64,000 nt of DNA from Phoronis australis (Eukaryota; Animalia; Phoronida), in NCBI GenBank assembly GCA_002633005.1, contig NMRA01000875.1, positions 1 to 64,000 of the forward strand. The letters run 5' to 3'. The notes beneath the pieces were generated by a model that was not told the origin of the DNA, did no database searches, and was given only the letters and a program-made list of their open reading frames with translations. The translations under genes and the position numbers were made by a program. Shown here piece after piece: positions 2,305 through 60,808 of this stretch (position 1 is its first letter; each line of letters begins with the position of its first letter).

Positions 2305-5300
2305 ATGGAATGTATTATTTCCAAAAAACCGGTGACAATTCAGCCTAATTCTGTAAAACGAGTAGGTTGTTTTGAATTCCCCAAAATATCCTCCGCATTG
2401 GTTTTTGAGCCCTGTGACGAGCTGGATTATAGACTCATGATTCCGCGGTCTGTTCATGATACAGCAAAAGACCCAGTACTGTACATTTTTAATGGTTCAG
2501 ACCGAGCGATCAGGGTTAAAGCTGACTCGAAACTAGGTTGGGTAGAACCCATTGCTGAGAATGTAGATAACGTGGTGATACGATCTACAGGTGTCGCTGC
2601 TGTGTCCGACGATGCTGACTCGTCGTCTGCCAATCCGGATTCCTCTCATAAAGGGATTGCGGAGTTGTCGGCCGATGGGAACGGTTCCTCTGGTTTACCT
2701 CTGAAGCTGCATTCACTTTTTGAAGTATCGAAGACTGGCTTGTCCTCTAACGAGGCGTCAGTTCTTGAAAATCTCTTAATAGAGTATCAGGATGTGCTTG
2801 CTGCTGATGATTTAGATCTGGGGAATTTTACGGCAGTCGAGCATGTCATCGATACAGGCTCTGAATTTCCCGTCAAAATGGCTATNGACTATGGAATTCC
2901 ACCCCGTTATATGGAATGTATTATTTCCAAAAAACCGGTGACAATTCAGCCTAATTCTGTAACACGAGTAGGTTGTTTTGATTTCCCCAAAATATCCTCC
3001 GCAGTGGTTTTTGAGCCCTGTGACGAGCTGGATTATAGACTCATGATTCCGCGGTCTGTTCATGATACAGCAAAAGACCCAGTACTGTACATTTTTAATG
3101 GTTCAGACCGAGCAATCAGAGTTAAAGCTGGCTCAAAATTGGGTTGGGTAGAACCCATTGCTGAGAATATAGATAACGTGGTGATACGATCTACAGGTGT
3201 CGCTGCGGTGTCCGGCGATGCTGACTCGTCGTCTGCCAATCCGGATTCCTCTCATAAAGGGATTGCGGAGTTGTCGGCCGATGAGAACGGTTCCTCTGGT
3301 TTACCTCTGAAGCTGCATTCACTTTTTGAAGTTTCCAAGACTGGCTTGTCCTCTAACGAGGCGTCAGTTCTTGAAAATCTCTTAATAGAGTATCAGGATG
3401 TCTTTGCTGCTGACGATTTAGATCTGGGGAATTTTACAGCAGTCGAGCATGTCATCGATACAGGCTCTGAATTTCCCGTCAAAATGGCTATGAGACGAAC
3501 CCCTGTATGTTTCATTGATGAGGAAAAACAACACCTCCATAAAATGTTACAAGCAGGTGTAATTGTCCCCAGTACAAGTGAGTGGGCTGCTGCTCCTGTT
3601 TTAATTCGTAAGTCCGATGGTTCGGTGCGTTATTGCATTGACTACCGTGCTTTGAATAAAATTACTAAAAAGGATGCGTGGCCCCTTCCCTTGATTGATG
3701 AGTGTATCGACCTTCTATCAGGCAATGTCTGGTTTAGTAAGCTCGATGCTAACTCGGCCTATTGGCAGGTTAAAATCAGAGAGGAGGATCGTAAAAAGAC
3801 TGCTTTTATTACCAAATACGGTCTTTATGAATTCAAGTCCATGCCATTTAGTCTTTGTGGTGCTCCTAGTACTTTTTCTAGGGCTATGGGGTTGGTTTTA
3901 CGGGGGTTGAATTGGAATTCCGTTCTCGCCTTCTTGGATGATATTTTGGTGTTGGGTTCTTCTTTTGAGGATCATCTCCAGAATCTCCGGGAAGTGTTCG
4001 ACCGGTTTAGGGAGTATGAGTTACGACTCAAGCCTAAGAAATGTGGATTATATCAAAAAAGAGTTCAGTTCTTAGGTAGATGGGTAGGCCCTGATGGTTT
4101 AGAAATGGGGGATGATAATATTAAAAAGGTCAAAAATTGGCCTATACCCCAAACCAAGAAACAATGTCAAAGTTTTTTAGCCTTTGCTAATTACCACAGG
4201 TCCTTCATCAAACATTTTGCAGAGATGGCTTCTCCACTGTATGCGGTAACTGGTTCATCTAGTTTTAAGTGGGGTGATGCTCAGCAGTCGGCTTTTGATG
4301 AGCTCAAATTAGCTTTGATTACTCCGCCTGTTCTTGCTCTCCCCACATCAGATGGGGAATTCATTCTCGACTGCGATGCTTCTGACTTTGCGATCGGCGC
4401 TTGCCTATCTCAGATTCAGAATGGTGTTGAGCGGGTGATCTATGCTAGCTTGGCATTGGTCGATGAACAAAAGCGTTACTGCACTACTCTTAAGGAACTG
4501 CTTGCGGCAGTTCGTTTCACTCATCAGTACCGTCATTTTCTATTAGGTCGTGCTTTTACGGTAAGAACCGATCATAGTAGTTTGACGTGGCTCCTGAATT
4601 TCAAATCGCCCAATGGTCAGCTCGCACGGTGGATATTACAACTTCAACAATTTGGTGGTATGAAAATTGTTTACCGTCCTGGTAATAAGCACGCGAATGC
4701 AGACGCTCTGTCTCGTATTCCCGTGTCTTCTGGTTGCACATACAAGTATGGTGTTCAATTAGAGGATTTACCATGCCGGGGGTGTAATAAGTGCAAAAGG
4801 GCACATGAGGCTTCGTACGATTTTTCCAAGGAAGTAGATGATGCTTTTCCTTTGGCAACTCGGCCCACGCCTGTTTTGACTGATAAATGTGTAGGTACTG
4901 TTCCTGATCCCAGTAGTGACGCTATAATTAATCGTTTGTCTTGCTATAGGGATTCGATTTCAACTAATATGACGGATTATATTCCAGATGACTATGATGA
5001 GACTCAGCTTTCTTTGACAATTGCTTCCCCAGTCCCAGGTGGAAACATTCTTTTGGAGGATCATTTTTGGTTTTCTGAGGACAATGTTTCGATTCGTAAT
5101 GTTACGTCTTCCAATTATTTGGACAGTGTTCCCGACTTGGCTAAGAAGCAAAGAGACGATGTAAATCTTCAATTTGTTTTTGATTATTTGGAAAATCAAT
5201 CTTACCCTAGTCAGGACACACTCTTTTTAGCTAGTAAATGTACTAAGTTTTACTGGATAAACAGAGATAACCTGGAGCTGGTGAATGGAGTTCTACACTG

Positions 5301-6657
5301 GAAATCTACTGACGGATTATCATCTCGTTTGTTAGTAGTGCCGTCCTCACTTGTTAATAATGTTATTAAATTACATCATGATGTTCCATCGTCTGGAAAT
5401 CAGGGTATTGATAGAACGGTATCACGTATTAAAAGTAGTTTTTACTGGCGTGGCATGACAGCAGACATTAAAAAGTACATAGATTCTTGTTCTTCCTGTA
5501 ACCATAACAAGCAGGGTAGGGGAAGGCACGGAAAGTTCCCTATGAACCGGTATCATGCTGGTGTTCCTATGGAACGCGTTCACTTGGATTTTATGGGACC
5601 TTTTCCTATGACTTCCAGGGGTAATGCGCACATACTCATGATGGTGGATCAGTTCACTAAGTGGGTAGAGTGTATTCCTTTGCCTGCCCAAACTGCGGAA
5701 TTAACTGCGTTTGCAGCAATAAACGAGTTTTTTACAAGGTTTGGTTACCCTTTCCAGATCTTTACGGATCAGGGTAGGAATTTTGAGAGTGCTTTGTTTT
5801 CTAATGTCTGTAAGCTTTTGCAGATACGCAAGACAAGGACTACTCCTTACCGCCCCTCATCCAATGGTCAGGTGGAGAGATTTAATCGTACATTGATGGA
5901 TGCTGTTCGATGTTACGTTTCTTCTAGTCAGGATGACTGGGACCTTTTCTTGCCGCAGATTGCATGTGCTATTAGGTCTTCAGTTAATAGGCAGACAGGT
6001 TTCACTCCCAACATGCTTATGCTGGGCCGTGAGATTAATCATCCGGTTTCTCTCATGTATCCAGTGGCACAAGGGCAGGACCCTGTTTCCCCTATTGATT
6101 TCGTTGACACTCTTCAAAAGAGGATTTCTAGTGCACATGAGGTGGCCAGGAAGACCCTAGTCACTACCCAAGCCCGTATGAAACGCGATTACGACCTTGT
6201 GGCACACCGTCGCTCGTTCAAGACGGGTGACGTTGTATATATTAGTGACACCGCGGTCATTAAAGGCAAATGTAAGAAGTTAAGTCCACCTTGGAAAGGT
6301 CCTGGCATTGTTATTGATGTTCTTACGCCTTTTCTTTTCAGGATCCGACTTGAGAATTCAGTTTCCACTGTTAATCATGATCGATTAAAAATTTGTAATG
6401 ATAAATTGGAAACGTTGCCTAATCAGATTAAAAGGATGTTAGCTGTGGGTAATTTTACCAGTCCCCTTCTTGTTGATAACGACCTGTACTGTGTATGTCG
6501 CCGCCCGGATGACGGAGGATTTATGATCCAATGTGATTCGTGCGATGAATGGTACCATGGTAGTTGTGTCGGAATAAACAGTGAGGTGGCGGCTACCATC
6601 GACAAATATTATTGCCCTCGGTGCAAGCCTGTCAGGCGGTCTTACTTATCATGTTAA
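2305..6657 (+). CDS. pol: Ty3/Gypsy Pol polyprotein (spacer, RT, RNase H, integrase, GPY/F, C-terminal PHD finger); gag and protease not visible
   Basis: RT motifs: YCIDYRALN, LDANSAYWQV, MPFSL, FLDD (3931-3942). RNase H motifs: DCDASDFAIG, KELLA, TDH, NADALSR. Integrase motifs: H..CSSC, DFMGP, TDQGRNF, NGQVERFN, WKGP. The order RT-RH-IN is Gypsy-type. 2295-2885 duplicates 2901-3491. Confidence 0.95.
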   Translation: MECIISKKPVTIQPNSVKRVGCFEFPKISSALVFEPCDELDYRLMIPRSVHDTAKDPVLYIFNGSDRAIRVKADSKLGWVEPIAENVDNVVIRSTGVAAVSDDADSSSANPDSSHKGIAELSADGNGSSGLPLKLHSLFEVSKTGLSSNEASVLENLLIEYQDVLAADDLDLGNFTAVEHVIDTGSEFPVKMAXDYGIPPRYMECIISKKPVTIQPNSVTRVGCFDFPKISSAVVFEPCDELDYRLMIPRSVHDTAKDPVLYIFNGSDRAIRVKAGSKLGWVEPIAENIDNVVIRSTGVAAVSGDADSSSANPDSSHKGIAELSADENGSSGLPLKLHSLFEVSKTGLSSNEASVLENLLIEYQDVFAADDLDLGNFTAVEHVIDTGSEFPVKMAMRRTPVCFIDEEKQHLHKMLQAGVIVPSTSEWAAAPVLIRKSDGSVRYCIDYRALNKITKKDAWPLPLIDECIDLLSGNVWFSKLDANSAYWQVKIREEDRKKTAFITKYGLYEFKSMPFSLCGAPSTFSRAMGLVLRGLNWNSVLAFLDDILVLGSSFEDHLQNLREVFDRFREYELRLKPKKCGLYQKRVQFLGRWVGPDGLEMGDDNIKKVKNWPIPQTKKQCQSFLAFANYHRSFIKHFAEMASPLYAVTGSSSFKWGDAQQSAFDELKLALITPPVLALPTSDGEFILDCDASDFAIGACLSQIQNGVERVIYASLALVDEQKRYCTTLKELLAAVRFTHQYRHFLLGRAFTVRTDHSSLTWLLNFKSPNGQLARWILQLQQFGGMKIVYRPGNKHANADALSRIPVSSGCTYKYGVQLEDLPCRGCNKCKRAHEASYDFSKEVDDAFPLATRPTPVLTDKCVGTVPDPSSDAIINRLSCYRDSISTNMTDYIPDDYDETQLSLTIASPVPGGNILLEDHFWFSEDNVSIRNVTSSNYLDSVPDLAKKQRDDVNLQFVFDYLENQSYPSQDTLFLASKCTKFYWINRDNLELVNGVLHWKSTDGLSSRLLVVPSSLVNNVIKLHHDVPSSGNQGIDRTVSRIKSSFYWRGMTADIKKYIDSCSSCNHNKQGRGRHGKFPMNRYHAGVPMERVHLDFMGPFPMTSRGNAHILMMVDQFTKWVECIPLPAQTAELTAFAAINEFFTRFGYPFQIFTDQGRNFESALFSNVCKLLQIRKTRTTPYRPSSNGQVERFNRTLMDAVRCYVSSSQDDWDLFLPQIACAIRSSVNRQTGFTPNMLMLGREINHPVSLMYPVAQGQDPVSPIDFVDTLQKRISSAHEVARKTLVTTQARMKRDYDLVAHRRSFKTGDVVYISDTAVIKGKCKKLSPPWKGPGIVIDVLTPFLFRIRLENSVSTVNHDRLKICNDKLETLPNQIKRMLAVGNFTSPLLVDNDLYCVCRRPDDGGFMIQCDSCDEWYHGSCVGINSEVAATIDKYYCPRCKPVRRSYLSC
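6484..6624 (+). other. PHD finger at the integrase C-terminus
   Basis: LYCVC-x8-MIQCDSCDEWYHGSCVG-x11-YYCPRC, a C4HC3 pattern with Y/M/W cage residues. Confidence 0.9.
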
Positions 6658-6690
6658 ATTGTTTTTATTTGTAGGTTCTCTTGTCAAGAC

Positions 6691-8859
6691 GTGAGATTAA
6701 AGGAGAATCCCGACCTACCCGTTTTTAGGGGCAACGCAAATGCCCCTACTCAGGTAACGGTTTCAGCAGCCGTCGCCGTCGTGCCCGCCCCCCAGGGCGA
6801 GGGTATGCCGGTGCCGGCGCCATCTGTGGGTTGTGGCCCATCAACTTCTACGGAAGGAGGTGGTCCAGAACCTCCGGAACCCTCCTCATCCCCTTCTTCG
6901 GTGGGGGATTTTGATGATTCCATTTTGGAGGATCCTTATGCACCCGCCCCTGTGGCTGCAGTTTCTCAACCCTCTGTACCCATGGAGGTGGTTGTTGAGG
7001 AAATTCCCCAAAGACCTAAGAGGTCCACAAAAGGAGGTCCAGTGAAGTCATCCACCCTCCCAAGGGCTGGTACGGAGGCTTACTCTGCCCCTCCTCAACT
7101 AGGCGAGGTCGTTTCTTGCCCTCTATGTGGTTTCCACGTTTCTGGAGACCACACAGAGGATGAGATTTTACTTAGCCATGCGTATGCGCACCGTTTACCG
7201 GCCCTCTTCACGGTAACTGATGCGTTTACCTTGGCCGACCTCGATCTGCACCGAATAAGGTTTGAAGCCTTGTCGGTGCTCTACAGGTTGGTAGTAGAGC
7301 GTGAGATTAGAGATTGTAGGGACCTTTTAGATCTCTGTAATCTTTTATGTGGGGCTTATCCTGTGCTACCGCACATGCACGTCGTAGACCTAATGTCTAT
7401 GGGGTTCATGTGTAGTGCCATGAATTGGTCTTTCTCGGGATCCTTTGAGATTGATCCCAGGATCAACAGCCCAGCAGCTTGCAGCCACTGTCATGTTGTC
7501 CTGGTTTTGATGTCAAGGTTGCCGGCTGACGCTCTGTCCGCCTGGATCCACGCCTTTGGCAAGCGCGCAGTGCCCGTGCTGCCCAGAGAAATGTGGTCGG
7601 GGGGCGCAAGACTTTCAAGTCAAGTGCCACCCAGTTCCGTGACCCCATCTCCTTCGGGGGGTGGGGTGATGGGACAAGGAGAACTGGCTGGCGCCTCCAC
7701 ATCCTCGGGTGTGGCTGTCGCTAGCACAAGTTCTTCAAGTGGAGCTGGTTCCGCTGAACCTTCACTTGCTGCTAAGCAGCAGCAAGAGAGTGCTTGGCTG
7801 AACAACCTCCACCAGCAGGCTGGCCGTCTGCTTTATTGGAGGCAGCAGGCCACCCTGCCACAACAGGGGGTGAGGGATGCTGGTGCGCCGTACCCTCAGA
7901 TGACGTATGCGGCAAAAGTCCGCAAGCCACCTGGCCGGCCCCTAAAGGGTCGACGTCCATCTGGGGCTTCGCCCTCCGTGTCAAAAGCTAAATCAGGACC
8001 ACCTCCTGATTTAGCTATAGATGCCCACTTCCATCTGGATCGCTTGTCGGCATCCTGGGCTCAGCGTCATATCACTGAGACTAGGATGTTGACGATCGAT
8101 CAGATGCTCAGCACCCAGCTGTCACGGGTTTCTCAGAAACCTGTGCGGTTGGTTGGTGGGGTTGCAGTTTTCTGCGATGTGGAAAACTGGAAGTACATTG
8201 AGGCTTCCCGTTTCCCACATGGCTGGAAGGCTGTGGTGGGCATCCACCCCAAACGGGTTGGATCAACGAATCCCAGTGTTCTGGAGCGTCTCCCCCAGCT
8301 ACTAAAGGAGCCCTTTGTAGCTGGCCTTGGTGAGGTCGGTCTGGAGGCCCGGGAGGACTTGGCCATCCAAAAAGAAGCTTTGGAGGAGATGGTGCGAATC
8401 TTTGCGGAGGTTCGGGCCAGCTCCCCCAGCTTCAAAAATAAAGTCGTGGTGATTCACCTTCGTGGCTCACCCGACAATCCACGCTTCTTGGAGGGACAAG
8501 ACTTCGTCTTCGACCTCCTGAAGCGCCACTGTGATGCAGACTTGGGTTTGCATCTCCATTGTTTTGGAGGTGCGCCCGAGGATGTACTCCGGTGGACGGG
8601 GTTCTTTAGGAACTGCCACTTCGGCTTCGCCGGTCATGTGCGGCAGTTCTTAAAGTTCCAAAACAAGGGGCTACAAGAGGTTCCGATGAATCGACTCCTC
8701 CTGGAGTCCGATTCACCGCACCTCGCCATTGGGCAAGCCCCAATGGCGCCCCAATACCTGGGCGAAGTAGCCATGGAGGTGGCGCAGCGTTCTCGTCGTC
8801 CGCTGCGTGACATCCTGGATGCTTCCACCAGGAATGCCAGGCGGCTTTACCATCTCTAA
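6691..8859 (+). CDS. Retrotransposon-associated ORF2: Pro/Ser-rich N-terminus, C2H2-like motif, helical region, C-terminal TatD-family metallo-nuclease (~8011-8856)
   Basis: TatD motifs in order: IDAHFHLD, GIHP, GEVGLE, IHLR, HCF, GFAG, RLLLESDSP, NARRLY. The ORF is uninterrupted. The true start is uncertain; the frame is open from 6658. Confidence 0.9.
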   Translation: MRLKENPDLPVFRGNANAPTQVTVSAAVAVVPAPQGEGMPVPAPSVGCGPSTSTEGGGPEPPEPSSSPSSVGDFDDSILEDPYAPAPVAAVSQPSVPMEVVVEEIPQRPKRSTKGGPVKSSTLPRAGTEAYSAPPQLGEVVSCPLCGFHVSGDHTEDEILLSHAYAHRLPALFTVTDAFTLADLDLHRIRFEALSVLYRLVVEREIRDCRDLLDLCNLLCGAYPVLPHMHVVDLMSMGFMCSAMNWSFSGSFEIDPRINSPAACSHCHVVLVLMSRLPADALSAWIHAFGKRAVPVLPREMWSGGARLSSQVPPSSVTPSPSGGGVMGQGELAGASTSSGVAVASTSSSSGAGSAEPSLAAKQQQESAWLNNLHQQAGRLLYWRQQATLPQQGVRDAGAPYPQMTYAAKVRKPPGRPLKGRRPSGASPSVSKAKSGPPPDLAIDAHFHLDRLSASWAQRHITETRMLTIDQMLSTQLSRVSQKPVRLVGGVAVFCDVENWKYIEASRFPHGWKAVVGIHPKRVGSTNPSVLERLPQLLKEPFVAGLGEVGLEAREDLAIQKEALEEMVRIFAEVRASSPSFKNKVVVIHLRGSPDNPRFLEGQDFVFDLLKRHCDADLGLHLHCFGGAPEDVLRWTGFFRNCHFGFAGHVRQFLKFQNKGLQEVPMNRLLLESDSPHLAIGQAPMAPQYLGEVAMEVAQRSRRPLRDILDASTRNARRLYHL

Positions 8860-8861
8860 CA

Positions 8862-9488
8862 NNNNNNNNNNNNNNNNNNNNNNNNNNNNNNNNNNNNNNN
8901 NNNNNNNNNNNNNNNNNNNNNNNNNNNNNNNNNNNNNNNNNNNNNNNNNNNNNNNNNNNNNNNNNNNNNNNNNNNNNNNNNNNNNNNNNNNNNNNNNNNN
9001 NNNNNNNNNNNNNNNNNNNNNNNNNNNNNNNNNNNNNNNNNNNNNNNNNNNNNNNNNNNNNNNNNNNNNNNNNNNNNNNNNNNNNNNNNNNNNNNNNNNN
9101 NNNNNNNNNNNNNNNNNNNNNNNNNNNNNNNNNNNNNNNNNNNNNNNNNNNNNNNNNNNNNNNNNNNNNNNNNNNNNNNNNNNNNNNNNNNNNNNNNNNN
9201 NNNNNNNNNNNNNNNNNNNNNNNNNNNNNNNNNNNNNNNNNNNNNNNNNNNNNNNNNNNNNNNNNNNNNNNNNNNNNNNNNNNNNNNNNNNNNNNNNNNN
9301 NNNNNNNNNNNNNNNNNNNNNNNNNNNNNNNNNNNNNNNNNNNNNNNNNNNNNNNNNNNNNNNNNNNNNNNNNNNNNNNNNNNNNNNNNNNNNNNNNNNN
9401 NNNNNNNNNNNNNNNNNNNNNNNNNNNNNNNNNNNNNNNNNNNNNNNNNNNNNNNNNNNNNNNNNNNNNNNNNNNNNNNNNNNNNNNN
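8862..9488. other. Assembly gap, probably hiding the 3' LTR
   Basis: Run of N starting 2 nt after the ORF2 stop. Confidence 0.95.
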
Positions 9489-15734: not shown

Positions 15735-16594
15735 TTAAGGTGTTCTTTTCAGATTGAAAATTTCTATATCTTCCTGATACAGATGAGCGATTCTCTCTAT
15801 GATGCTGCTTTCAATTTGTTTGTAGTACTTCGACAACTTGTTGTCACCACGCCTTTTCCTGTTTTTTTCTTCATGTGCCGTTAACTTTTCCGGAAATCGT
15901 CCCACGATATGCGTAATATTGGCACGGCTCAAAATGTAATTAGAATCTTCTGCAAACGTGTCGTACTTCCCAATGACGTCAAATGTAATAGCACATGGGT
16001 TGCAAAGTTTATAAAATTGCACCCAATGTTCATTTTCCGGGTATTTAGGAGGACGTTTCAAACTCTTCGGGTCATTGATTATGAAGTCAAGGAAACCCTT
16101 GAAATTTGGTTGATTCGCATGCGAGTAATGTCGTATGCTAGCAATTCCGGCGCTGTTTCGAAAACCCGGATCACCGGCACTGTTGTTTTCGTATTTGTCA
16201 CGAAAACACGACAAAAGACGATCCCAATGATCTCTCACTACGACAAATTTTAGGTAATTTTCCAATCTGTACTTAATAGCTTCGTGATCACCATAGAACT
16301 GAGCTAGAGTTTTCAGGCCCTGTCCATGGACGCTTCCACGTGACATACTCAAAACTTTAGATTTGTTTACTCCTCGAAGAATAAGAAAGGCACGTTTCCA
16401 ATTTGTACACGCCACTTTTGGGATGTTACACCAGATAATTTTGTGCTCATCGTCGACCACCAGGTGTCCCAACTGACTGTGATCGATGGTGCGATTCGCC
16501 AGATGTGGGAATCGGCTGCATTGTTTCCTCACCTCCTGTTGTCTGAGTAAGTTTCTGTCGGCCGCCTTTACGGGAAACCATCGTAAGCTTCCTG
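15735..16594 (-). CDS. Carbohydrate sulfotransferase (Sulfotransfer_2, CHST8-14/HNK-1ST-like), catalytic terminal exon
   Basis: 5'-PSB IPKVACTNWKR, 3'-PB VRDHWDRLLSCFRDK, HW, CNPC, IGKYDT. No N-terminal TM anchor is present. A NAGNAG acceptor (ttttggtatCAGCAG) at ~16592-16597 suggests upstream exons. Confidence 0.9.
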
Positions 16595-17013
16595 CTGATA
16601 CCAAAATAAACATTTCTGAATACGAAGACGAGATACTGGCGTGGTCACGAGTGCCTGCATAAGCACACGGGTACGGGCTCGTGCTCACAGGCACACTGGT
16701 AGTGTTCACAACAAGAACGAGATGAACTCGGAGTCAAACACAGGTGCAATGGCATGTCCTGTGAACATCTTTAAATATTTCACAATGATGAAGCCGCCCG
16801 AAGGGTTCTCAAACGACTACCTTTCAGCCCGTTAACGTGTGTTTATTCAACACGCACTATTGTTAGACTTGCTTGAATGGCCAATAGATATGAGAAGTCA
16901 CAGGGTTCTTAACCGAATGCTTTTCTGTGCGTTAAAAATGCCAAAACTGGAAATGATAGTAAAAAAACAGCCTAAATCGTAGCACATTTGATTTAGGCCA
17001 GAACAGAAGCACC

Positions 17014-40800: not shown

Positions 40801-43800
40801 GACAAGCCAAAACAGTTTCTGAAAACTGGCGACCAAAAACTTTATTAAATAGTGTATACAAACTAGCTTTGGGAAGCGTTGCAAACAGATTTAAAACGTT
40901 CTAGACAAACTGATTGCAAATACACAAACTGGATTTATTAAGGGAAGATTTATGGCTGAGGACACAAGAATAATTTATGATATTTTATTTATGAGTTATA
41001 CGGACAAGCACAACATTCAAGGACTACTCGTGTTGATAGATTTTGAACAAGCTTTTGACAGTGTTTCCTGAATAATTTCAATTTCAAAGTCAATATTATT
41101 CGATGTATGAGAACATTTTGTAATTTTGCCCGTGTCAAACAACTTCATACTGGAACGCAGATGTCGACAAGGTGATCTCTCTCCCATTATATTTTATACG
41201 GTGTGCTGAAATTTTGTCCATATTGATTAAACATGATCCTGAAGTGAAAGGTATCAGAATCGACAACGAAGACTTCGTTATAACACAATACACAGATGAC
41301 ACAACTTTCACATTTGACGGAACTCCAAGATCCCTAGCAGCACTTATGAACAACCTAGAGCTCTACGCAGGGATGTCGGGGCTGAAGATAAACTATTCTA
41401 ACACAAAAGTAGTGTGGATTGAAAGTAGAAATTTCTCTCAACAAGTGTTTCATCGGACGCGTTGGAAACTAAAATGGGGTGACGTTGATTTTAAGCTTCT
41501 GGGTATTAATTTCAAAGTGAACTTGGAAACTATGTGTATGTCTAAAGATAACTTTGATGCAAAAATAATGGAAATGAAGAATCTGATTTATATATGGTCA
41601 CAATATTAAAAACACTTGTGCTTCCAAAAAATTATACATCTGCTGACGCTGTCCCAATGATACTACTTTTGGCGATATTGAAACTTTGTATTTTAAATTC
41701 ATTTGGGACGGTAAACCGGATAAAATAAAAAGAGGAGTACTCCTTAAATCCATAGAATAGAGTGGATTGAAGATGATGTCAGCAAATTTAATATGTCTTT
41801 AAAAAAGAAGATTCTTTTTAACAACATCTGCATGGAGGTATTTGTTGCAAAAAGATATCGGGCTTACTACTAGAGAGGTAATGTTTAGCTATGGAGACCA
41901 TAGGTTAACTAGATCGGATAACTGTAACTCTTTTGGAAAGAATGCTTCCAGTATTGGAGCCTTTAAGTTCACAAACAATTTCGAGACACTAAAATACGGT
42001 GTCAATTAATTTGTGGGCCAACAGTACTACATGTATTACGGTGGAATACAGCCCTTGTATTTATGAGTCATTCGTTGGAAAAGGTATAATATTTGTGAAC
42101 GATTTTTTAGACTGGAATGGTAACTTTTACACCTTTGACAGTTTCCAGACGATTCATCAGATTAAAGGAGAATGCCACCTGATTTAATTAGTCATTTTAC
42201 CATCTTAATCGGTCTATATCCAAATCGCCTCTTATACCGTTGATCTCACCTTTCCGAGAGGTGTCGCCTTAACCTGTGAGGAAGGTGAAAAACGACGCAG
42301 CGGCGTCAGTGGTTCGTCTGCAGAGTGAATGCCGCTATATTGCGTGCCTCGTTCCCGCTTGTCCGAACTATGAAGCTGTGAACAAAGCGGGTATATCGTT
42401 TTTTCGGCTTCCTCGAGAGCTCGAAATGCTTAGGAAGTGGCTCGCGGTAGTGAAGAATGAAAGGTAGGCTGTTAATAGCAAGTATGAGGCCGTGAATCAT
42501 CTCCATGTATGCGGCCATCATTTCGTCGACATTGATTTCTCTGACGAATTCCGGCTTACCAAAGAACTATCCACACGTTCCGTTGCCTGTGCCTGTGCAC
42601 GGCGCCTCTCTAGTGTTTCTCGATCAGTGTATCCCGGTTCGAACTGATAGCCTGTGAAACCTAACGATCCGAACCGTGAAGTCTTTGTCGCCTGAGCTCT
42701 TGACTAAGTCGGGATTGGCGCGGGCCGAGTTGCCGTTTATTAGTAAACGTTCATTATTCTGCGTTCTGTTTCAAAATAAATTATTCTCATCCTTATCAAT
42801 GCTGATATGAAACTGAAACAAAGTCTGTCTCATTAGATACTATTTGGAATGCCTTGGAGTGCTCGTGAGTGCAAATGTTTTAGAAGCCAGCAATGAATAG
42901 ATCACTGCGTAACAAGCTTTTGATGCCGGCAACAAAGGTAATTGACCGGGCACCGAGGCCGTGTGAGCGCATGCTAATTCAGAAAGCTGTTTGGAAACAA
43001 TTACTCTATTTTATATGCAATGGTCACATGTTAGGGGAATCTTTATTTAGAAATACAAATACATTATTCAATTCATTGTTATTGCACAACCTTTGCCCTG
43101 ACGGTCTGTCGAAGAGGAACCCGACTTCGCGGCCCCCGACATGTATGTAGATTTTCAGCTTCGTCGGTGGCTAATTCACATTAATAATTACGTGCACATT
43201 ATTTCTTTGGCTCACTGTTATACTGTAATCTTTTCGTGACTGGAAATTTGGTTTCCATTTCAAGCTGGTTTATGTTCGTGCCATTCTCGCGACGGGTCTG
43301 ATCGGGTTCCGAGCCACTGGCCGGGATAACAAGTCAGCCCGGCCACGACGGGCCTGATCGGGTTCCGAGCCACTGGTCGGGATACCAAGCGTTTTGTGTG
43401 TTTAGAAATAAAAAAGTCACAAGTATAACAACACAGATCTAGGTTCTCCTGTCTGTATTTCACGGAAGAATGCATCGAATTTATCTCTGAACAGACCCCA
43501 AACTCCCCAGTGCTACGGACCTTGATAAATTGACCTGCCGAACTTTGTAGGCTACGGTATGTCCAAAAAGCACTAAATCCGTAACAGCGAAATAAAACAA
43601 CATGCTTTTATAAGAACTCGGTGTATTTTTAAGGGTTTTACATCGAAGTTTGATGATTTATTGGTGTTAAACGATGAATTCAAGCGATAAGCTGACACCA
43701 GTAACCCAAGTTGTGAACTGCTGAACAGACTGCGTGTGAAACCAATTACGCCACTGGATAATTTCAACACCTCCGTTTATTGTCAGATAACGCAACCGAA

Positions 43801-44773
43801 CGTGCCGTTGTCGAGTAGAACTACTCGATCTAAATTAATGTCACCTTTCTCAACTATTATTCAATTGTTAGTGCAATAAAAATATTTGGATACGTTTTCC
43901 AAAAACTTAATTCTAAAAAGGTACATGTATGTTGACCACTTGTATATTTTTCTCTAAAAATATTATTTTGACGAAAAAAGGCATGTCGGGATTCTTACCA
44001 TATTCTGTGCAAAAATGACATAATACCATCAGCACAAAAGAAATTCGAAGTACTAGGATTTTCGCTATCAGAAAAGATGTGGAATTTCTATTACAAACTT
44101 CCACATGAATGTACGAATGGCACAAGCTTACTTTCTTTCAGTTCCGCGCAATGCATGAATTCCACCTACTAATCATTTCTTAAATAATATTAGATGCTGT
44201 ATGTGGACTCAAATGCTGGTACTTTTTGCAATTACTTTGCCGAAACTCTAGAACAGTTATTCTTTGAATGTGAATATGTTAATTCTTTCTGGCATGGGGT
44301 ACGTCTCTGGTTAATGAAAGCAATGCAAGTAAATTTTAAAATAGACAAAACCACTATTACAGTTGGTCTTCAAAATGAACAAAACAGAATTTTGAATTGG
44401 TTCCTTTACAAAGTAAAATTTTCATTAATTTTATAAAATGAAATTTGCTAACGTCAAACTTAATTCGTCTTAAATGTTGAAGGTGTGTTTTAATGTAGAA
44501 TTTAGTGCTTCGTCAAACATACGGAAATTTAATGATACAAACAAATGGGAAGATTGGAAATGTGTTTTTGAAACATGAAGGGAGCCGGATAAATGTAGTT
44601 GACCAGGTGCCAGAACAGAAATTTAAGTAGTACTTTTTAACTTGGAAGTAACAATGAAATGCTTTTTCGATTTTTTGCACAGTTCTGTAAGCCGTTGTGC
44701 TGTGTTGTGTATATTTGTATATGCACCTGTCTTTTGTAATAAACGTATTTAAAGTAAAAAAACTAAAAAATAA
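37893..44773 (+). mobile_element. Near full-length decayed L1/Tx1-clade LINE (ORF1 ~37997-38600; ORF2 ~39394-44570)
   Basis: ORF1: LLIHGLEE, DRTHRFG..PRPIIAKF. APE domain: LSVNCQ, YCVQDAH, GDFN, RLDFFL. RT: IDFEQAFDSV, TQYTDDTT. C-terminal FCNY..ETLEQLFFEC. A-rich tail and 12-bp TSD AAAATAAACGCC (37881-37892 and 44774-44785). Confidence 0.9.
42166..43834 (+). mobile_element. Kolobok-like element inserted in LINE ORF2
   Basis: Left end TTAA|AGGAGAATGC. THAP remnant CLVPACPN..FFRLP..KW..VCGHHF (42341-42525). Removing the element restores LINE text HQINVTFLNYY. The right TIR is deleted. Confidence 0.8.
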
Positions 44774-46884
44774 AAAATAAACGCCTGGAAAAGAAGGGCG
44801 TGTAAACGGAAACTCATAGGTTTGCTGACTTTGACATTCTTACTTAAAACTGTGTTCTTAAATTTTATGTTAATAAATGCATAGTTCGCCAACATTTTGT
44901 TCGTTTTTATAAGTGATAAATAATCCACAAAACTGAATTTGTTACAAAGAGTTGACGTTGAGTGAGGTTTTAAGAAGAAATTTTCCGAATAAACTGCCCA
45001 CCAGATGGATAATTGTCACCATGAGTTACAACACCAAATGTACGCCCAAGGACGTCTATTTGGCATAATCTTCCGAATAAACGCCCATGGGCGTTTCATC
45101 GGGTGGGCTTATCAACGGAAAATTTCGATAGAAATTTTAGACGAGCGATGTGCAGTTGAAGATGCGAGGTTTTAATTCCTTGTTAAAGCAAGTGGAATAT
45201 GATGCCCTCGCAAGAGGTCCCATTGTAAGGGGAAGCTACTTCTCCTTCCTCATTTTGAAATCATTCATGTACATCGTTTCATCTCAAGTGGTACATGTAG
45301 GCTGTCGGAGGTTGCACTTGTGATGGAAACAAAGTCAAAAGACGCAGCAGTAGCAAACTCAGCAGACGAAGACGCATCCTGATGAGCAGAAGTCATGCGT
45401 CTTTGTTTCAAACTTGCGGATCAGGAGAAGGCAAATAAACAAAATAATTTCACTGTGGCGTGTGCATGCGTTAATTAGTTCATTTGAAATGATTTCTTTA
45501 ATTTCAATTTGTCTGGAATAACTATTCTCTTTAGTTGTATTTCTAAATAAGTGTATAGGCTGTGTAGTGACTCATCAGAGTACTTGTTCTGTACATGTAT
45601 ATGTAGAAAAAAAAATTGTCAGTCTTTAAAGCCCAACTAAAGCTGAATTTTGTTATTTTAGATGTTTTGGGCTAACCAGATAGTCCGAGAAAGGCCTTAG
45701 TAAAATAAGAAAACGCGAGTTCAATCACGCAAATGTAAGCCCGTCAAATGATAGGTGAAGCTGCTTTTTTGTGCCATGTTGCGTCACCGCGAGATCCCAG
45801 CACAAACAACAAACGGTCGATAACAGTTGTATTGAACTGGGGTCTGAGTAGAACACCATTGTGTGCGGGTGTTATTGGCAGCTGTTTGGATTAAAGGTGA
45901 TTCTCGCGTTGACGTAGACAAAAGCAACCCAATACGCCTAACAGTTCGTTACGTTTGGCAATTTATGGCAATAGTGGGTTCAGAGCGAAGCTCTTAACAT
46001 ACTGTAGAAACCAAATTTACAGGTGTTACCGTTCAAGATAAGCTTTAAAAGAACACGGTTGTTTAGTTAATCACGTCATTTTATGTGTTGTAGTGCGCAG
46101 TACTAGAGTTTTACACAATAATTATTACGTTACAACGTAAATAATATATCGATTGAATGTTACGTTGTGCTACTGCGCTGGATCACCGTTGGCAAGTTCT
46201 ATTACTTGCTGTATTAGAGGTCTTCTCAGTCACGTTACTGCGTCATACTGCGTTTGTTGTACCTTTTGGATTTTAACGAGAACACTGCAATGCCAAGTAG
46301 CTCCCCAACCATTTGCTTGTTCGTATTGTTCTTGTAAATATGTCTTTATTATTTATCATCAACCATGTCACCCGCAGTGTCTTCCATATTTTGTCCGTTT
46401 AGCCTATACCATTCGGCTCCAACTTTTTCATTGATGCCCGTAATGTACACTGCTGTTTGCGTTTACGATTGCAGAGACAGTCGCGTGAAAATCATCTCCT
46501 CCGAAGTGAAACTGCGGGCTTCATATTAGCCGCTACAACGATCTAATTTATTGATTGATGCGCAGGATCCCTTAAATAAGCCAAATAACGGCTTTTGACG
46601 TGGTTATGTTGGCAACGAGAGGGATGTGACAATTCGAGGTGCCTCGTTCGTCAAGCAACAGCTGCAAAGTTTAACACCTGAATCAAACCCGAATTTTGTT
46701 TGACACAAAAATTAATGTTTGGCAAACTGCTTTTAAGCATTAAAATGTCGCCGAAGAGTTTCAAAAATTTGACGTTCGTCGCCATCAAGCGTGTATGATT
46801 TTCATATTTCCACCATACAGTATGCCTCTGCTGCGAAATTCAATGGATTATCTTAGGAACTGACTCACAGTTGTCGCCGATGCC

Positions 46885-48012
46885 ATGTCATCAGGAAGCA
46901 ATTGTTCGACTCCTTCGAAATATGTCACGGTCGCGTTTGTGTTAGACACTTGCGTCTCGGGTACCTTGGTAACATTTGGAATTGTTGGTAACTTGCTAAC
47001 TATACTTGTCTTCGGCCATTACCGTCTTAAATCGAGCACGACGATTTTATTAACCGGTCTGGCTGTGTCCGATCTCCTGTACCTTTCCGTACATGTGTTC
47101 CTGTTTCAAGTTCTGCGATCCATATATCCAGAAACTGGATACTTTGAGGTCTATCACGATAACTGGAGTTGGATAGAACCATACGAATATCCATGTGGTA
47201 TAATGATGCAAACTGCCTCAGTGTGGTGTGTTGTTCTTGTAGCTGTCGACAGATTTATAGCTATTCGCTGGCCTTTACAATCCAAGCGCCTCTGCACTAC
47301 ACGAAGGGCAAAATTCAAACTGATCGGCGTGGTCTTCTTCGCGATTCTCTTGAACCTGCCACGTTTTTTCACGCAGAAAACAGTGATGGCGTACGACTCG
47401 TGCCGAAACAAAACCATGGCGAAACTTGTTGGAACAGATTTCGGCTGGAATCCAGCTTATATTTGGCCGGCTACAGTATTGTACATTGGTTTTATATACG
47501 CATTGCCCGTCGTCATTCTGATCCTTGTTAATTTGTCACTTATGATAGCCCTGAGAGCCGCTGGTAAGAACATGAGAAAGCTCATTATAGTTGGAATACA
47601 CAATAAAAAATCGAATCTAGAAAGCAAACGAATCACATTCATTCTGGTTATGGTAGTGATGGTGTTTATTCTTTGCCAAATTCCCATTGGAATCGATCAC
47701 GTTATGTACGCCACCAAGATGACGTCATGGGCCTGGCCAGAACGAGGATATTACAGTTTAGTGTGCAATGCGTTGGTTGCGCTAAATTCGTCGACAAATT
47801 TCTATATCTACGCTTTGTTCGGTGGTAAGTTCCGACGCCAACTCAAGGACTTGTGCTGTTGCATACTGCGACGAAAACCGCAATCCCCAAGTTCGCCCAC
47901 GTTGACGAATTTTCAAATGTCGCTGGTGTCGATCAGCTCATCGTCCTTCCGGGTAAAATATAATGATGCACCGGGAAAATTTGCCCCAGGAAGTAACCCA
48001 GGAGCGACTTAG
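46885..48012 (+). CDS. Intronless rhodopsin-family peptide GPCR (FMRFamide-receptor-like)
   Basis: Seven hydrophobic segments with GN (TM1), LAVSD (TM2), DRF (TM3), NLPRFF (TM4), CQIP (TM6), NSSTNFYIY (TM7) and FRRQL helix 8. Confidence 0.93.
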   Translation: MSSGSNCSTPSKYVTVAFVLDTCVSGTLVTFGIVGNLLTILVFGHYRLKSSTTILLTGLAVSDLLYLSVHVFLFQVLRSIYPETGYFEVYHDNWSWIEPYEYPCGIMMQTASVWCVVLVAVDRFIAIRWPLQSKRLCTTRRAKFKLIGVVFFAILLNLPRFFTQKTVMAYDSCRNKTMAKLVGTDFGWNPAYIWPATVLYIGFIYALPVVILILVNLSLMIALRAAGKNMRKLIIVGIHNKKSNLESKRITFILVMVVMVFILCQIPIGIDHVMYATKMTSWAWPERGYYSLVCNALVALNSSTNFYIYALFGGKFRRQLKDLCCCILRRKPQSPSSPTLTNFQMSLVSISSSSFRVKYNDAPGKFAPGSNPGAT

Positions 48013-50529: not shown

Positions 50530-51913
50530 TCATGAGATACAACTTGACCTAACTGCATGCAAAGTTTTGTCTTGCGCAATGAGCCGAGTCTATTTGCAAA
50601 GCGAATATCTGAAATAAAACAACGAACATCTAATCAAAATTTGTCGATAGTCATATTGCTGTTAATTGAAAGTAGACTGGGCGGTCTGCTACACCGTTTC
50701 ATTAGTTTACTGTACAGGCAAACACTGGGTGAAAACGGGGGTTGGCTATCTCGTCATGTTGAACATGCTGATCACAAAAAAAAACGACTGAACGAAGTCT
50801 GATTAGGTTGTTTTTAACGCAAACCAATGCATACCTCTTCAACTGTAATTTAATACAAATCCGCGGATGAAGCCCTTCTTATTTGGTTAGGACTGTAATG
50901 GAAAACACGAGGCACATCCTGAATGCAGCGTCCACTTTCTAGAAAGATAGCTGGTGAGTACCCCGACCCGAGCTCCCCTGAGCTTGACGCGATCTAAACC
51001 AAATAAATGCTACATACAAAAATATCGGCATACAATAAAGGTGACCCTGTAATGTTACATGTATGTACTGTGACTCCGTTTTAGTTTGGAAACTTATTGG
51101 GTATAGATGGCAGAACGAAATTAACTTGAGGTCAACTGACCGGGTCAAAGTACACGATATACTAAAATGAGGAAAATCCACCTCTTATGGCGCACAGCAT
51201 GTTAAATATATGAAGAAAATGCTGAATCAACTGATCTTTGATTTCTTTTGTGATCTAATAATGTTAAGAATAAAAGATACATAAAGAGTGGAATCAAATA
51301 TTTTGGTTCCCAAAATCTCAATAAGCGAAGTCACCATAGTTCGGTGTTATTTGTGATTAGGGATGTGGGTAGTCAGAACAGCTTACAAAGTGTATTATAA
51401 GGACTGTGTGTCTGTAGTCTGCACATGCTACATAGAGGACGATCATCGTACTCATTGTTCTATTATTTACATCTGATGTAGTTATTGCAATTAAGTAAAT
51501 TTTAACTGAAATGTAAGGTATTGGACCACGATGTACCAAAATCTCAATAAGTGAAGTTGCAGTATTAAGTGTACATCTTACATGAAAATATTGTACTTAG
51601 AAGAATATTTGTACCTATGTCTTATACGGTGGGTTATTGCAATTAAAACTTCAATTTATATTTAAATTCATTATGCTTCATTATACATGTATGCGCGAGA
51701 CATATTGGGTAGCACAAGCGTTCCCTAATTTGAACGATATGTGCACGGGCTTAAAATACTTGGAGCCCTTCTAATTAAATTTGAATCCCCTTCAATTAAT
51801 TCCCAAGGTCTCCATAGAATTTGCCTTTGTACAAATAACGTCATTCCGCCAATGGAATCTCTCGTGCATCTTGCTTGCATTGGCTTTTGACCTTGTTCGT
51901 TGTGTAGTGTTAA

Positions 51914-53711
51914 AGGAGAATGCTATCCAAAAACAACCTAGTTTGTATCACTCCAGATCGAGTAGTTCCACTCGAAAACACCAAGTACAGCTCTTTTACC
52001 TGACACCTGACGGCAGTCGAAGGTGTTGAAATTAACCAATGACGTCAGAGGCTCGAATGCAGTTTGTTCAGCAGTTCACAACACGCTTACTGGTGTCAGC
52101 TAATCCCTTGAATTCATCGTTTTATACCAATAAATCAAATACATCGAGTTATCGAAACACGTATTATTCTATTTTGCTGTTAAGGATTTTTAGGTATTTG
52201 AAAATACCGTAGCCTAAAATAAAGTTCGGTAGGTCAATTTACAAGGTCTGTCGGTGACAAATTCAAATTATTCGTCCGTAAACTACAGACAGGAGAACAT
52301 AGCTTTGTGTTGCAATTTTAGACTTGCGAATATTTTCAGTTCAAAACACACAATACGCTTGCTATCCCGGCCAGTGACATAGAACCCGATCAGGCCTATC
52401 GCGGCCGTACTGAAGACGTCACGAACATAAACCAGCCAAAGTTGGGAACTAAACTTCCAGTCACGAAAAGATTACATGTATACTAGTGAGCCAAAGAAAA
52501 ATGTGCACGTGATTTTTTTGGAGAATTAGCCGCAAAATTGCAAATCTATTTACCAGCTCGTCGGGGGCCGCGGAGTCAGGTTACCCTTCTGCAGAACCGT
52601 TGAGGCCATTACGGCGTTTTCCCTTTGCTACCAACTTGTTCGATTCCATAGCCCAACAACAAGTTGGGAAGATCACACCTGTAGCCAATATCTAACACGA
52701 CTGATTTAGTTCCATTCTGTCATTTATGGTTGGAGGGCCGGCTCGCTTTTGTTTCAGGTCTAATATAAGCATTGGTTAGGGTGAGAATAAGTCATTACGA
52801 AACAGAACGCACAAATAAATGACAACGTGGCAACTCGCAATCTCGACTTAGGCGAGTGCTCATCTAACGAAGACTTCACAGGTCGCCGACTGTTAGGTTT
52901 CACAGGCTATCAGTTCGAGCTGCAATACACAGATCAAAAAATAACAGAGAGGCACCGTGAACGTGCACAGAAAACGGAACATGTGGATAGTTCCGAAAAC
53001 CGTTTGAATGAGTAGTCATGGTGTCAGTGAGCTAACTGCACGATAATGGAAACTACTGACGCTTGCGTTTGCTGGCACGGAGTTCTGCAAATGAAACGCC
53101 TTCCTGGAGAAGCGCAGATGTGTCTCATGGACAATCTTGATTTAGCATCTCTTCTAAACAGAGGTGTACTTACGATGTTTACTGGGCTGAGAAAAGAATA
53201 AGCGAAAACATCTTACATCAAGAGGACCAAACATAAGCCTCACGAACGAGTCAGTCATCAAACAGTTTATATAAAACGTTGTATTCTCACGCCTTGAGTT
53301 AAGTTTGTTTATGTTTTCGAGGCCAACTACAATTCTCCACAGTCAAAAACTGATCAATCAATCCGACGAAATGCAGGCCACTGACAGACACGGAGAAAGT
53401 TCAAGCCCTCATACTTGGTATTAACGACCTTCTTTTCATTCTTCACTACCGCGAGCCACTTCCGAAGCATTATAGGCTCTCGAGGAAATCGAAATAACGA
53501 TATATCCGCTTTCCCCGTAGCTTCATAGTTCGCACAACACCACAGCGGCACTCTGCAGAAGAACCACTAACGTCGCTGCGTCGTTTCTCACCTTCCTCAA
53601 GGGTTAACGCGACACCTCTAGGTGAGGTAAGATCGACCGTATACGACTTGATGTGGATATAGACCGATTAAGACGGTAAAAGGGAGTAATTAAATCGGGT
53701 GGCATTCTCCT
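51914..53711 (-). mobile_element. Non-autonomous Kolobok-like element
   Basis: TTAA|AGGAGAATGC...GCATTCTCCT|TTAA. THAP remnant on minus (53354-53551). Cys-rich ORF2 remnant on plus (52827-53200). Confidence 0.85.
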
Positions 53712-54290
53712 TTAACTTAACTGGGAAAGCCTAGCCTTGATTTCAGCAAATGTCTCCCAGACACTGCATGTCGGCAAGAATCATGTTGTTTCATAGCTCT
53801 TGTCAAAGCTAATAACTTCAAGAAGTCTATTCAAAGGAAAAACGAGTGGTTTGTGTTCCAAAGGTCAAGGACCACAGAAATATGTCCAAATTTAGGTTCA
53901 GATATTTATGACCCCAGAAAAAAACTTCGGAACGCCATGGCTGATCGTATTCAAATGAAACTTCCTTATACTATCCTTTATGCATGTACTGTTCTCCGCA
54001 ACCTTGTTAGGGATTACTTTTTTAAATATTCTCGTTTTGCGCGAGGATCTATATAAAATAAGACTCATGATTTTCATTAAAAAAGTAAAAACTTGAATAA
54101 AATTTGCATTTTTAAAACATGTCCGGGATTTATCCCTAGGACAAGTTCGTCCATGTTGCTCCTGTAAAACTGCACGTCGCCGCTGTTGGGTGTCAATGTT
54201 GAATACCTAAACGAAGTGCTTTGGGGTTAAAACCATCGCTACGATCTCCCACCTAGCAATAATCTCGAATAAGCCGCGGCAAAACTTTAA

Positions 54291-55878
54291 AGGAGAATGC
54301 CGGCCAAAAATAACCTGGTTTGTATCAGTTTACATAGAGTAGTTCCACTCAATAACATCAAGTTCAATTGTTTCACCTGACACCTGACTGCAGACGGAAA
54401 AGTTATAATTAACCAATGACGTCATAAGTTCAAACGCAGTCTGTTCAGCCATTCACAACACGCTTACTGGTGTCAACATATCGCTTGAATTCATCGTTTT
54501 ACACCAATAAATCATCAAAATTCGATGGAAAACCTTTACAAATACATCGAGTTCTTAAACAAACGTGTTGTTTTATTTCACTGTTACGGATTCACAGGTA
54601 TTTGAACCTACCGGCCGTAGCCTACAGCTAGAGTTCGGTAGGCCAATTTACCATAGTCGATTGCGGGAGTTTGAGTCTGTTTGATGACAAATTCGAATCA
54701 TTTCCGTGAAATACAGACAGAACAACATAGCTGTCTGTTATGCTTATAGACTTGCGATTTTTGTTTAGTTCTAAACACACAAATCCCAGCGAGTGGCTCG
54801 GAACTCGATCAGGCCCGTCGCGGCCGCCGGCAATGGACATCACGAACATAAACCAGCTCAAGTTGGAAACTAAACTGTGACTTGTGAGCCAAAGAAATAA
54901 TTTGCACGTAATTATTTTGGTGAATTAGCCACGTCACTGCAAATCTACTTACTCAAAATTATCGGGGGCCGCGAAGTCATGTTTCCCTTCCACAGAACCG
55001 TCAGGGCAAAAGTCGTGCAGTAACAATGATTTGAATAAGGTATATGTGACCATATCATAAAAAATCGAGTTATTGTTTCACAACAGCTTTCTGTCAGCAA
55101 ACACTGAATGACCACGCGCTCACACGGCGGCTCGGTGCCCAGTCAATTACCGGTACCTTTCTGCATCTAAAGTCGGTAACACAGTGATCTATTCATTGTT
55201 GGCTTCTCAAAACATTTGCACTCACAAATACTTCAAAGGATTACAAATTGTATCTAATGAGACAGACTTTATTTCAGTTTTATATAAGCATTGATTAGGG
55301 TGAGAATAATTCCTTTTGAAACAGAACGCAGAATAATAAACGTCAACATGGCAACTCGTAATCCCGACTTAGATGACAGCTCATCCGACGAAGACTTCAC
55401 AGGTGGATAATAAGGTTCCACATGCTATCAGTTCGAACTGGAATACACTGATAAAGAAATACTTGAGAGGCGCCGTGAACATTCACAGGCAACGGAACGT
55501 ATTCTTTCGCCGCCGGCATACGTCAGAGAAATCACTGTCGACGAAATGCCGGCCACAGACACGGAGATGTTTCACGGCCTCATAGTTGCTATTAACAGCG
55601 TACATTTCATTCTTCACTACCATGAGCCGCTTCCTAAGAATTTCGGGCTCTCGAGGAAGTCGAAAAAATCAAGAAAACCCACTTTCCTCGCACCTTCATA
55701 GTTCGCACAAGCAGGAACGATGCACCGCAACATAGCGGCATTCACTCCGCAGACGAACCAGACGTCGCTCATCTTCCTCACAAGTTAACGCGATCTCGGC
55801 AAGGCAAGGTCAACCGTAGGCGAGGCTATGTGGATATAGAACGATTAAGACGGTAAAAAGGAAATCGGATGGTATTCT
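54291..55878 (-). mobile_element. Third copy of the same Kolobok-like family
   Basis: Starts TTAA|AGGAGAATGC and is colinear with 51914-53711 and, in reverse, with 42166-43834. The right TIR is degenerate and followed by TTAA. Confidence 0.8.
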
Positions 55879-60164: not shown

Positions 60165-60302
60165 TCTTTCCACAGAAACCAGGTTAATTATTATGAGCCT
60201 AAATAACTGAGACATTTAAGAAAAATTTAAATGATTTGATTCAAAAAGAGATATACGAGCCAAACCAAGTGCAAGCATATATGATTATAGGAGATGCCTC
60301 AC

Positions 60303-60729: not shown

Positions 60730-60808
60730 CCAATGTGTTGGCTCCAATGAAGAATGCTTTGAGATCCTTCTTGGGCATTTCAGGCATACTAGCCACATAG
60801 TTGCGAGC
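60730..60808 (-). CDS. MAPK14: p38 MAPK exon (79 nt)
   Basis: ARNYVASMPEMPKKDLKAFFIGANTL; TAG acceptor and GTGAGT donor. Confidence 0.9.

Follow-up and report, generated by a model that had tools for sequence, protein, structure and literature searches.

Chromoviruses are Ty3/gypsy retrotransposons, MAGGY among them, whose integrase carries a C-terminal chromodomain (Grau-Bove et al., 10.1101/2021.11.30.470311; PMC6673714). PHD fingers are also in print, both on retrotransposons in general (PMC6673714) and on CR1, Rehavkus and Chlamys elements (PMC8557442). Guidance of integration by a chromatin reader is established for heterochromatin-seeking chromodomains, and a natural integrase with its own reader of histone H3 trimethylated at lysine 4 (H3K4me3) would be the active-chromatin counterpart. 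We analysed a 64,000-nucleotide stretch of DNA from Phoronis australis (contig NMRA01000875.1; hereafter the window), which holds a partly assembled Ty3/gypsy long terminal repeat (LTR) retrotransposon. As an earlier sequence-only reading had claimed, the pol gene of this element ends in a PHD finger that follows the GPY/F module of the integrase, the very place where chromoviruses carry their chromodomain.

A PHD finger at the integrase C-terminus

The pol frame and its parts were assigned by translation and Pfam, and for the PHD finger also by matches in the PDB. All lie on the forward strand of the window.

2956-6657, + strand: pol open reading frame (ORF) as assembled, in the order reverse transcriptase (RT), RNase H, integrase, GPY/F, PHD
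~3604-4077, + strand: RT
~4270-4653, + strand: RNase H
~5338-5511, + strand: integrase zinc finger
Motifs at 5581, 5761 and 5869, + strand: integrase DDE core
6247-6405, + strand: GPY/F module, motif WKGPG at 6292, a small beta-barrel as predicted by AlphaFold
~6409-6483, + strand: short helix, then the variable linker joining GPY/F to PHD
6484-6624, + strand: PHD finger, Cys4-His-Cys3, at the integrase C-terminus
6487, 6523 and 6550, + strand: cage Tyr, Met and Trp, equivalent to PHF2 Tyr7, Met20 and Trp29
6508, + strand: Asp at the PHF2 Tyr14 position
6535, + strand: Asp after Cys3, matching BPTF Asp27 (H3R2 contact)

The order of RT, RNase H and an integrase with a DDE core and GPY/F module is that of Ty3/gypsy elements, and the window copy retains the catalytic motifs of both RT and integrase. 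The PHD translation, LYCVCRRPDDGGFMIQCDSCDEWYHGSCVGINSEVAATIDKYYCPRC (6484-6624), is in frame with the integrase and is followed by 10 residues and a stop codon at 6655-6657. All eight zinc ligands are intact, and the match to PF00628 spans the full model (residues 1179-1223; E 6.3e-12; 45.8 bits against a cut-off of 24). The Pfam scan of pol that found the PHD found no domain of the Chromo family.

The closest PDB matches are PHF2 (E 2.3e-17), Cfp1, PHF8, BPTF, KDM7A and DIDO, and a profile built from 33 family sequences ranked Drosophila Cfp1 first (E 9.6e-21). The sequence and an AlphaFold model (mean predicted local distance difference test score, pLDDT, 78.9; predicted template modelling score, pTM, 0.54) agree on Cys4-His-Cys3 ligands in a cross-brace fold. 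In most of the top matches, this model superposes on H3K4me3-bound BPTF, DIDO and PHF2 (root-mean-square deviation 0.9-1.4 Å, 48-55 columns).

In the PHF2 structure, K4me3 lies among Tyr7, Tyr14, Met20 and Trp29, R2 rests on Glu22 and A1 touches Ile45/Asp46, while BPTF holds R2 with Asp27 (PMC8166343). The window PHD has three of the four PHF2 cage residues (the Tyr7, Met20 and Trp29 equivalents) and thereby the cage pattern Tyr, Met or Tyr, Trp. It also has equivalents of PHF2 Ile21, Ile45 and Asp46 and of BPTF Asp27, so that both an acidic residue for H3R2 and a hydrophobic pocket for H3A1 are present. These features assign the window PHD, as a sequence type, to the H3K4me3 readers of the Cfp1/PHF2/BPTF/DIDO kind, in agreement with the sequence-only reading.

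Conservation and architecture of the PHD lineage

A protein search with integrase plus PHD returned 857 matches; the best 120 all contain PF00628 and include models from Pinctada, Haliotis, Nucella, Lytechinus and Diadema, a result biased by the presence of the PHD in the query itself. We therefore rely on a PHD-blind search, in which the query comprised RT and RNase H only. Its best 120 matches comprise 74 proteins with a full PHD, 41 that end before a complete GPY/F and 5 that run beyond GPY/F without a full PHD. The PHD is thus present in 74 of the 79 relatives extending past GPY/F, which bears out the expectation that other family copies would carry it. Of the five exceptions, one breaks off within the PHD, two stop directly behind GPY/F, and the others are a distant multi-copy model and a Gigantopelta protein with a repeat tail. 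The integrase-PHD fusion recurs in 121 distinct protein clusters and in 53 loci from other samples, and the terminal PHD is a lineage trait of a large family in molluscs and sea urchins. No relatives were found among the viral contigs scanned. One protein, P0142, has a Tpt1/KptA RNA 2'-phosphotransferase domain between GPY/F and PHD (residues 1065-1234, E 4.2e-43).

For comparison of the cage, 123 PHD-bearing proteins were reduced to 121 relatives by removing the window protein and a further protein that could not be aligned. All 121 have the Met and the Trp, and 118 have Tyr or Phe. All three residues occur together in 73/74 proteins of the PHD-blind subset and in 74/77 clusters at <80% integrase identity. 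In this alignment the cage residues vary no more than the zinc ligands do, and because PHD pairs share a median identity of only 54%, this invariance is selective. The equivalent of BPTF Asp27 is acidic in 111/121, and those of PHF2 Ile21 and Ile45 are kept.

The PHD is under purifying selection at a level matching that of the integrase. In 11 hand-picked close locus pairs, most of them near saturation at synonymous sites (pS), the pooled uncorrected ratio of nonsynonymous to synonymous differences per site (pN/pS) is 0.18 for the PHD, 0.17 for integrase/GPY and 0.47 for the linker. Among the informative pairs, those furthest from saturation have ratios of 0.03 and 0.06. The linker is the least conserved stretch by this measure and in the alignment of relatives. 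Two read differences fall inside the PHD, both silent, among the 40 of 157 difference rows listed.

RNA reads from one study, taken from roughly a fifth of each of three runs, cover the whole element, including the PHD, at low depth, and family copies are thus transcribed at a low level. These reads are 90-99% alike to the window element and therefore stem from family copies or another strain. Reads and contigs under the same organism label span the integrase-PHD junction. Two of the three RNA runs show reads in both directions, a hint of host silencing. In DNA run X3, summed contig depth over the TatD end described below (7875-8860) is ~5-10 times that over pol (160-326 versus 21-51); this is not a copy number, but it hints at many truncated or non-autonomous copies.

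Two quick tree searches without PHD columns separate relatives with and without the PHD. In a tree of 83 rows, this split has a support of 98 in the Shimodaira-Hasegawa-like approximate likelihood-ratio test (SH-aLRT). In a rooted tree of 42 rows, a single PHD clade (26 PHD rows, one truncated row and one PHD-less model; SH-aLRT 99) is nested among PHD-less relatives. One gain of the PHD with occasional loss fits these trees best, although the root rests on one distant long-branch outgroup.

The PHD-less relatives end pol in an acidic stretch followed by a basic tail of the form R-x-G-R...P..L.D-Y/F. This pattern, written after the tails had been seen, matches 14/24 PHD-less loci in its strict and 22/24 in its loose form, and 0/121 PHD proteins (basic-tail pol ends: L030, L034, L040, L042, L044, L052, L055-L058, L060, L062, L066, L067, L069). 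The mutual exclusion of basic tail and PHD suggests a swap of tethers, in which the tail was replaced by the PHD. We take the basic tail to resemble nucleosome binders of the arginine-anchor kind and the nucleosome-binding motifs of LANA and CENP-C. Nucleosome binding by an arginine anchor is a general concept (PMC13347269).

In total, 102 related loci were fetched, 87 of which match GPY/F. Complete relatives read gag, pol-PHD, a third ORF and an LTR region. In the window, the third ORF and its parts follow pol directly.

6658-8859, + strand: third ORF, 733 aa, with a low-complexity N-terminus, a middle domain and a TatD nuclease
6659-6674, + strand: pyrimidine tract plus TAG directly after the pol stop, a candidate splice acceptor for the third ORF
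~7100-7560, + strand: conserved C2H2-like/INSPAA (zinc-finger-like) middle domain of the third ORF
~8017-8853, + strand: TatD nuclease domain with metal ligands (PF01026, E 3.9e-28)

Where at least 4 kb of downstream sequence or a circular contig is available, the third ORF is present in 16/17 PHD loci, and in the remaining one a long interspersed nuclear element (LINE) is inserted there. TatD was matched in 11/11 third ORFs scanned (L001, L003, L006, L025, L027, L033, L045, L055, L066, L083, L089), and the DxHxH, Glu, His, His and Asp metal ligands of the predicted TatD TIM-barrel are invariant in 20 aligned third ORFs. The co-occurrence of PHD and TatD raised by the sequence-only reading therefore holds for 16/17 PHD loci, but TatD is not specific to them: it is common to both groups, 14/29 PHD-less loci carrying it, and it appears to predate the PHD. 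At the other end of the element, gag opens with a ComEA-type helix-hairpin-helix domain (HhH; HHH_3) in 9/9 ORFs scanned (L001, L003, L006, L025, L081, L083, L089-L091) at E<=0.01, four of them above the cut-off.

Between -10 and +100 of the pol stop, acceptor-like sites occur in 17/36 PHD loci, versus 5.6 expected from shuffles and 46/215 control windows, and in 6/23 PHD-less loci versus 5.2 expected; the counts include two near-duplicate pairs. This excess in PHD loci suggests that the third ORF is expressed by splicing, in the manner of env. No spliced reads into the third ORF were seen among the reads listed, which, at a depth of ~1-14 and with the donor outside the window, is no evidence against splicing. 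Read-through of the pol stop into the third ORF, which share a frame in the window, was rejected as a general rule, since the frame offset varies among relatives.

The ends of the elements are less visible. Contigs of the relatives have no flanks, being either collapsed circles or cut off within the element, and neither LTR pairs with flanks nor target-site duplications were found in 14 + 8 loci, with self-BLAST in 12. By eye, a purine tract, a TG start and a motif like a primer-binding site were seen in L003 and L083, while scanning with regular expressions for such tracts and binding sites yielded little information. Loci L081-L102 are animal retrotransposon contigs within bacterial genome bins (Sedimenticola, SUP05 and others), annotated as bacterial proteins; host contamination of the bins is the likely cause.

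The assembly of the window copy is incomplete, and other features of the window lie further away.

2295-2887, + strand: repeats the first part of the pol stretch by an assembly duplication (97% across the 300 nt reported), with single-N joins at 2294 and 2888
8862-9488, no strand: gap of 627 N downstream of the third ORF, where a polypurine tract and 3' LTR are expected by comparison with L003 and L083
9489-9540: a pair of ATGCAAAT octamer motifs right after that gap, in LTR or host flank
15735-16733, - strand: host ORF, Sulfotransfer_2 sulfotransferase
42195-43831 and 51910-55862: three copies of a ~2.2-2.5 kb repeat, two tandem and one inverted, probably another transposon family
46864-48012, + strand: host ORF, rhodopsin-family G-protein-coupled receptor
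59345-63881: dispersed 71-nt repeats (families D3 and D6) with a conserved GCCACTAG(G)GGG core, which we take to resemble a CTCF-type motif

Because 2295-2887 duplicates the start of pol, an apparent ORF of 1454 aa is an artefact. The window assembly lacks gag, protease and the 5' LTR; relatives have gag and protease upstream of RT. Assembly gaps adjoin the element at both ends, and the insertion site is not visible in the window.

Proposed function and competing explanations

The architecture of these elements suggests the following scheme. The PHD would stay on the integrase after polyprotein cleavage and would bind the H3 tail, lodging K4me2/3 in a Tyr/Asp/Met/Trp cage and holding R2 with the Asp that follows Cys3. 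So bound, it would tether the integration complex to H3K4-methylated nucleosomes of the promoter type, and insertions would thereby be biased toward H3K4me3 chromatin near promoters. The PHD would have been gained once, in place of an earlier basic tail of the integrase, itself probably a nucleosome binder. Binding of H3K4me2/3 tails we regard as quite likely, whereas a real insertion bias toward H3K4me3 chromatin near promoters is a close call that tips just in its favour. The fullest version is put forward tentatively, as possible rather than probable: a widespread animal LTR clade may have swapped an ancestral basic nucleosome-binding tail for a captured Cfp1/PHF2-type PHD and so become an H3K4me3-guided promoter-seeker, matching the chromoviruses on the side of active chromatin and keeping a spliced TatD as an accessory gene of longer standing.

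The scheme is favoured by the placement of the PHD, in frame after GPY/F on a variable linker. It also has an engineered precedent, in that a fusion of the ING2 PHD to the integrase-binding domain of LEDGF redirected integration of HIV-1 (human immunodeficiency virus type 1) to transcription start sites (Ferris et al. 2010, as reviewed in PMC8149907); the tethering principle therefore works. If the scheme is true, such elements would keep supplying molluscs and echinoderms with promoter mutations and regulatory variation. A single source assembly holds both PHD-bearing elements (L081-L092) and PHD-less sisters that are otherwise built alike (L095-L098), so that a comparison of their insertion sites has a built-in control for host selection.

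Several observations weigh against the scheme. The aromatic-cage signature named in the sequence-only reading stands for Tyr, Met and Trp, but the fourth PHF2 wall, Tyr14, is replaced by Asp in the window PHD, and this position is Asp in 59/121 relatives and Trp or Tyr in 44/121. The equivalent of PHF2 Glu22, which binds R2, is Gln in the window PHD and in 100/121 relatives. Given these two replacements, affinity or the preference between me2 and me3 may differ from that of PHF2. An aromatic fourth wall is not required for the H3K4me3-reader type, since Drosophila Cfp1 (DmCfp1), solved with H3K4me3 (9c0o), also has Asp there. PHDs of this kind also bind methylated non-histone N-termini (PMC8166343). 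The history of a single gain is burdened by the gene model P0163, which lies inside the PHD clade without a PHD, and by the quick searches and long-branch root behind the trees. The window copy itself is probably defective, because it has a substitution at one integrase zinc ligand and, compared with the reads, a one-codon gap in RNase H. Finally, insertion into active chromatin has been argued to be harmful, and few fusions of Bromo domains with transposable elements (TEs) are reported (Grau-Bove et al., 10.1101/2021.11.30.470311).

The sequence-only reading had further framed promoter targeting as the opposite of chromodomain targeting. This contrast is too neat: the chromodomain element Tf1 inserts at promoters. 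In the Chlamydomonas element Gypsy-7a, which has a PHD in Gag-Pol, intergenic insertions are reported at 2.6 times above chance (10.1101/2022.06.16.496473).

Among the alternatives, the most durable holds that the PHD is a general tether to chromatin or mitotic chromosomes, which would make integration more efficient or the nucleus easier to reach and would favour promoters only slightly. The PHD appears to stand in for the basic tail (14/24 PHD-less loci versus 0/121), and a large, long-lived family is hard to square with strongly mutagenic targeting. A mark-blind tether, however, would not need a methyl-lysine cage, and the cage is as invariant as the zinc ligands. We consider this explanation unlikely, though the most credible of the competitors.

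It is less probable still that the PHD reads H3K4me3 elsewhere, on active LTRs of other elements or in germline-specific domains, so that insertions fall in repeats or intergenic DNA. The intergenic enrichment of PHD-bearing Gypsy-7a speaks for such targets, as does the coincidence with TEs of ~40% of unassigned H3K4me3 peaks in Chlamydomonas (10.1101/2022.06.16.496473). The window element also lies in repeat-rich DNA, and the ratios of observed to expected CpG in its flanks are unremarkable (0.74 and 1.03 on the upstream side and 0.71 and 0.45 on the downstream side; the window mean is 0.86). These flanks, however, are not proven insertion sites, because the true ends of the element are in gaps.

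At a slightly lower rank, and improbable in our estimate, is a role outside target choice, in which the PHD would bind a methylated non-histone N-terminus or protect the chromatin of the new copy against silencing, perhaps together with the TatD ORF. VRK1 is one of the H3-mimic proteins that PHF2-type PHDs bind (PMC8166343). The lineage also collects accessory domains (HhH on gag, TatD, and KptA/Tpt1 in one family), and the antisense-direction reads of two runs are in keeping with silencing. On the other side, Pol-encoded integrase acts in the incoming complex, the PHD occupies the position that chromodomains use for targeting, and TatD is apparently the older of the two, so a joint function is not needed. 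That a host PHD exon was joined to a dead retrotransposon by chance or in the assembly, as the gappy and partly duplicated contig around the element might suggest, is refuted by the recurrence of the fusion across clusters and other samples, by purifying selection on the PHD and by the same-label reads and contigs that span the junction, and the probability of this reading is negligible.

Relation to known systems

PHDs on transposons are known. We found no paper that describes, for animal gypsy elements, a PHD of the Cfp1/PHF2 type at the integrase end, and none on TatD in LTR elements, where the TatD third ORF would be an accessory gene of its own; most literature matches were judged by listing, and Repbase or Supplementary Table 6 of Grau-Bove et al. 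may already list members of the PHD lineage. The words 'PHD' and 'TatD' are absent from the main text of surveys of mollusc and annelid LTR elements (PMC6238403, PMC8556966), and nothing pertinent came from PMC3286476, PMC5890265 or 10.64898/2026.05.21.726589.

Gypsy-7a_cRei of Chlamydomonas is, like the window element, a Gypsy LTR element whose polyprotein includes a PHD, and this PHD is proposed to influence insertion. It differs in belonging to a green alga, in the position of the PHD, between RNase H and integrase according to a figure legend, and in its intergenic enrichment, and TatD is not mentioned in the excerpt (10.1101/2022.06.16.496473). Animal retrotransposons with an H3K4me-reader PHD are described as cnidarian fusions orthologous to PYGO1/2 (Grau-Bove et al., 10.1101/2021.11.30.470311), whereas the window PHD, judged by similarity alone, is like those of Cfp1, PHF2 and BPTF. 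No Pygo chain appeared among the best 60 of 69 PDB matches or among 33 profile matches at E<=1e-8. The animal element Ginger1-9_HM shares a gypsy-like integrase, GPY/F and a C-terminal PHD, but it is a cut-and-paste DNA transposon with a Ulp1 protease and no RT, and the arrangement is described for one family only (PMC2836005).

The host readers Cfp1/Spp1, PHF2/PHF8/KDM7A, BPTF and DIDO (PDB 9c0o, 7m10, 3kqi, 2f6j, 4l7x) share the fold, the zinc ligands and the Tyr/Met/Trp cage, and DmCfp1 shares the Asp at the fourth cage position. The window PHD differs from them in its fusion to a retrotransposon integrase and in its Gln at PHF2 Glu22. In the ING2-PHD/LEDGF tether, too, an H3K4me3-binding PHD is linked to the integration complex and shifts insertions to start sites; that tether is artificial and acts in trans (PMC8149907), whereas the PHD described here is natural and part of the integrase.

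The chromoviruses offer a close parallel, with the same Ty3/gypsy pol order and a histone reader fused after GPY/F at the integrase end. In place of their chromodomain, the window element has a PHD, and its lineage adds a gag tipped with HhH and a TatD third ORF of a putatively spliced type. The element thus resembles chromoviruses in the position and logic of its reader, and by its domains it is not a chromovirus.

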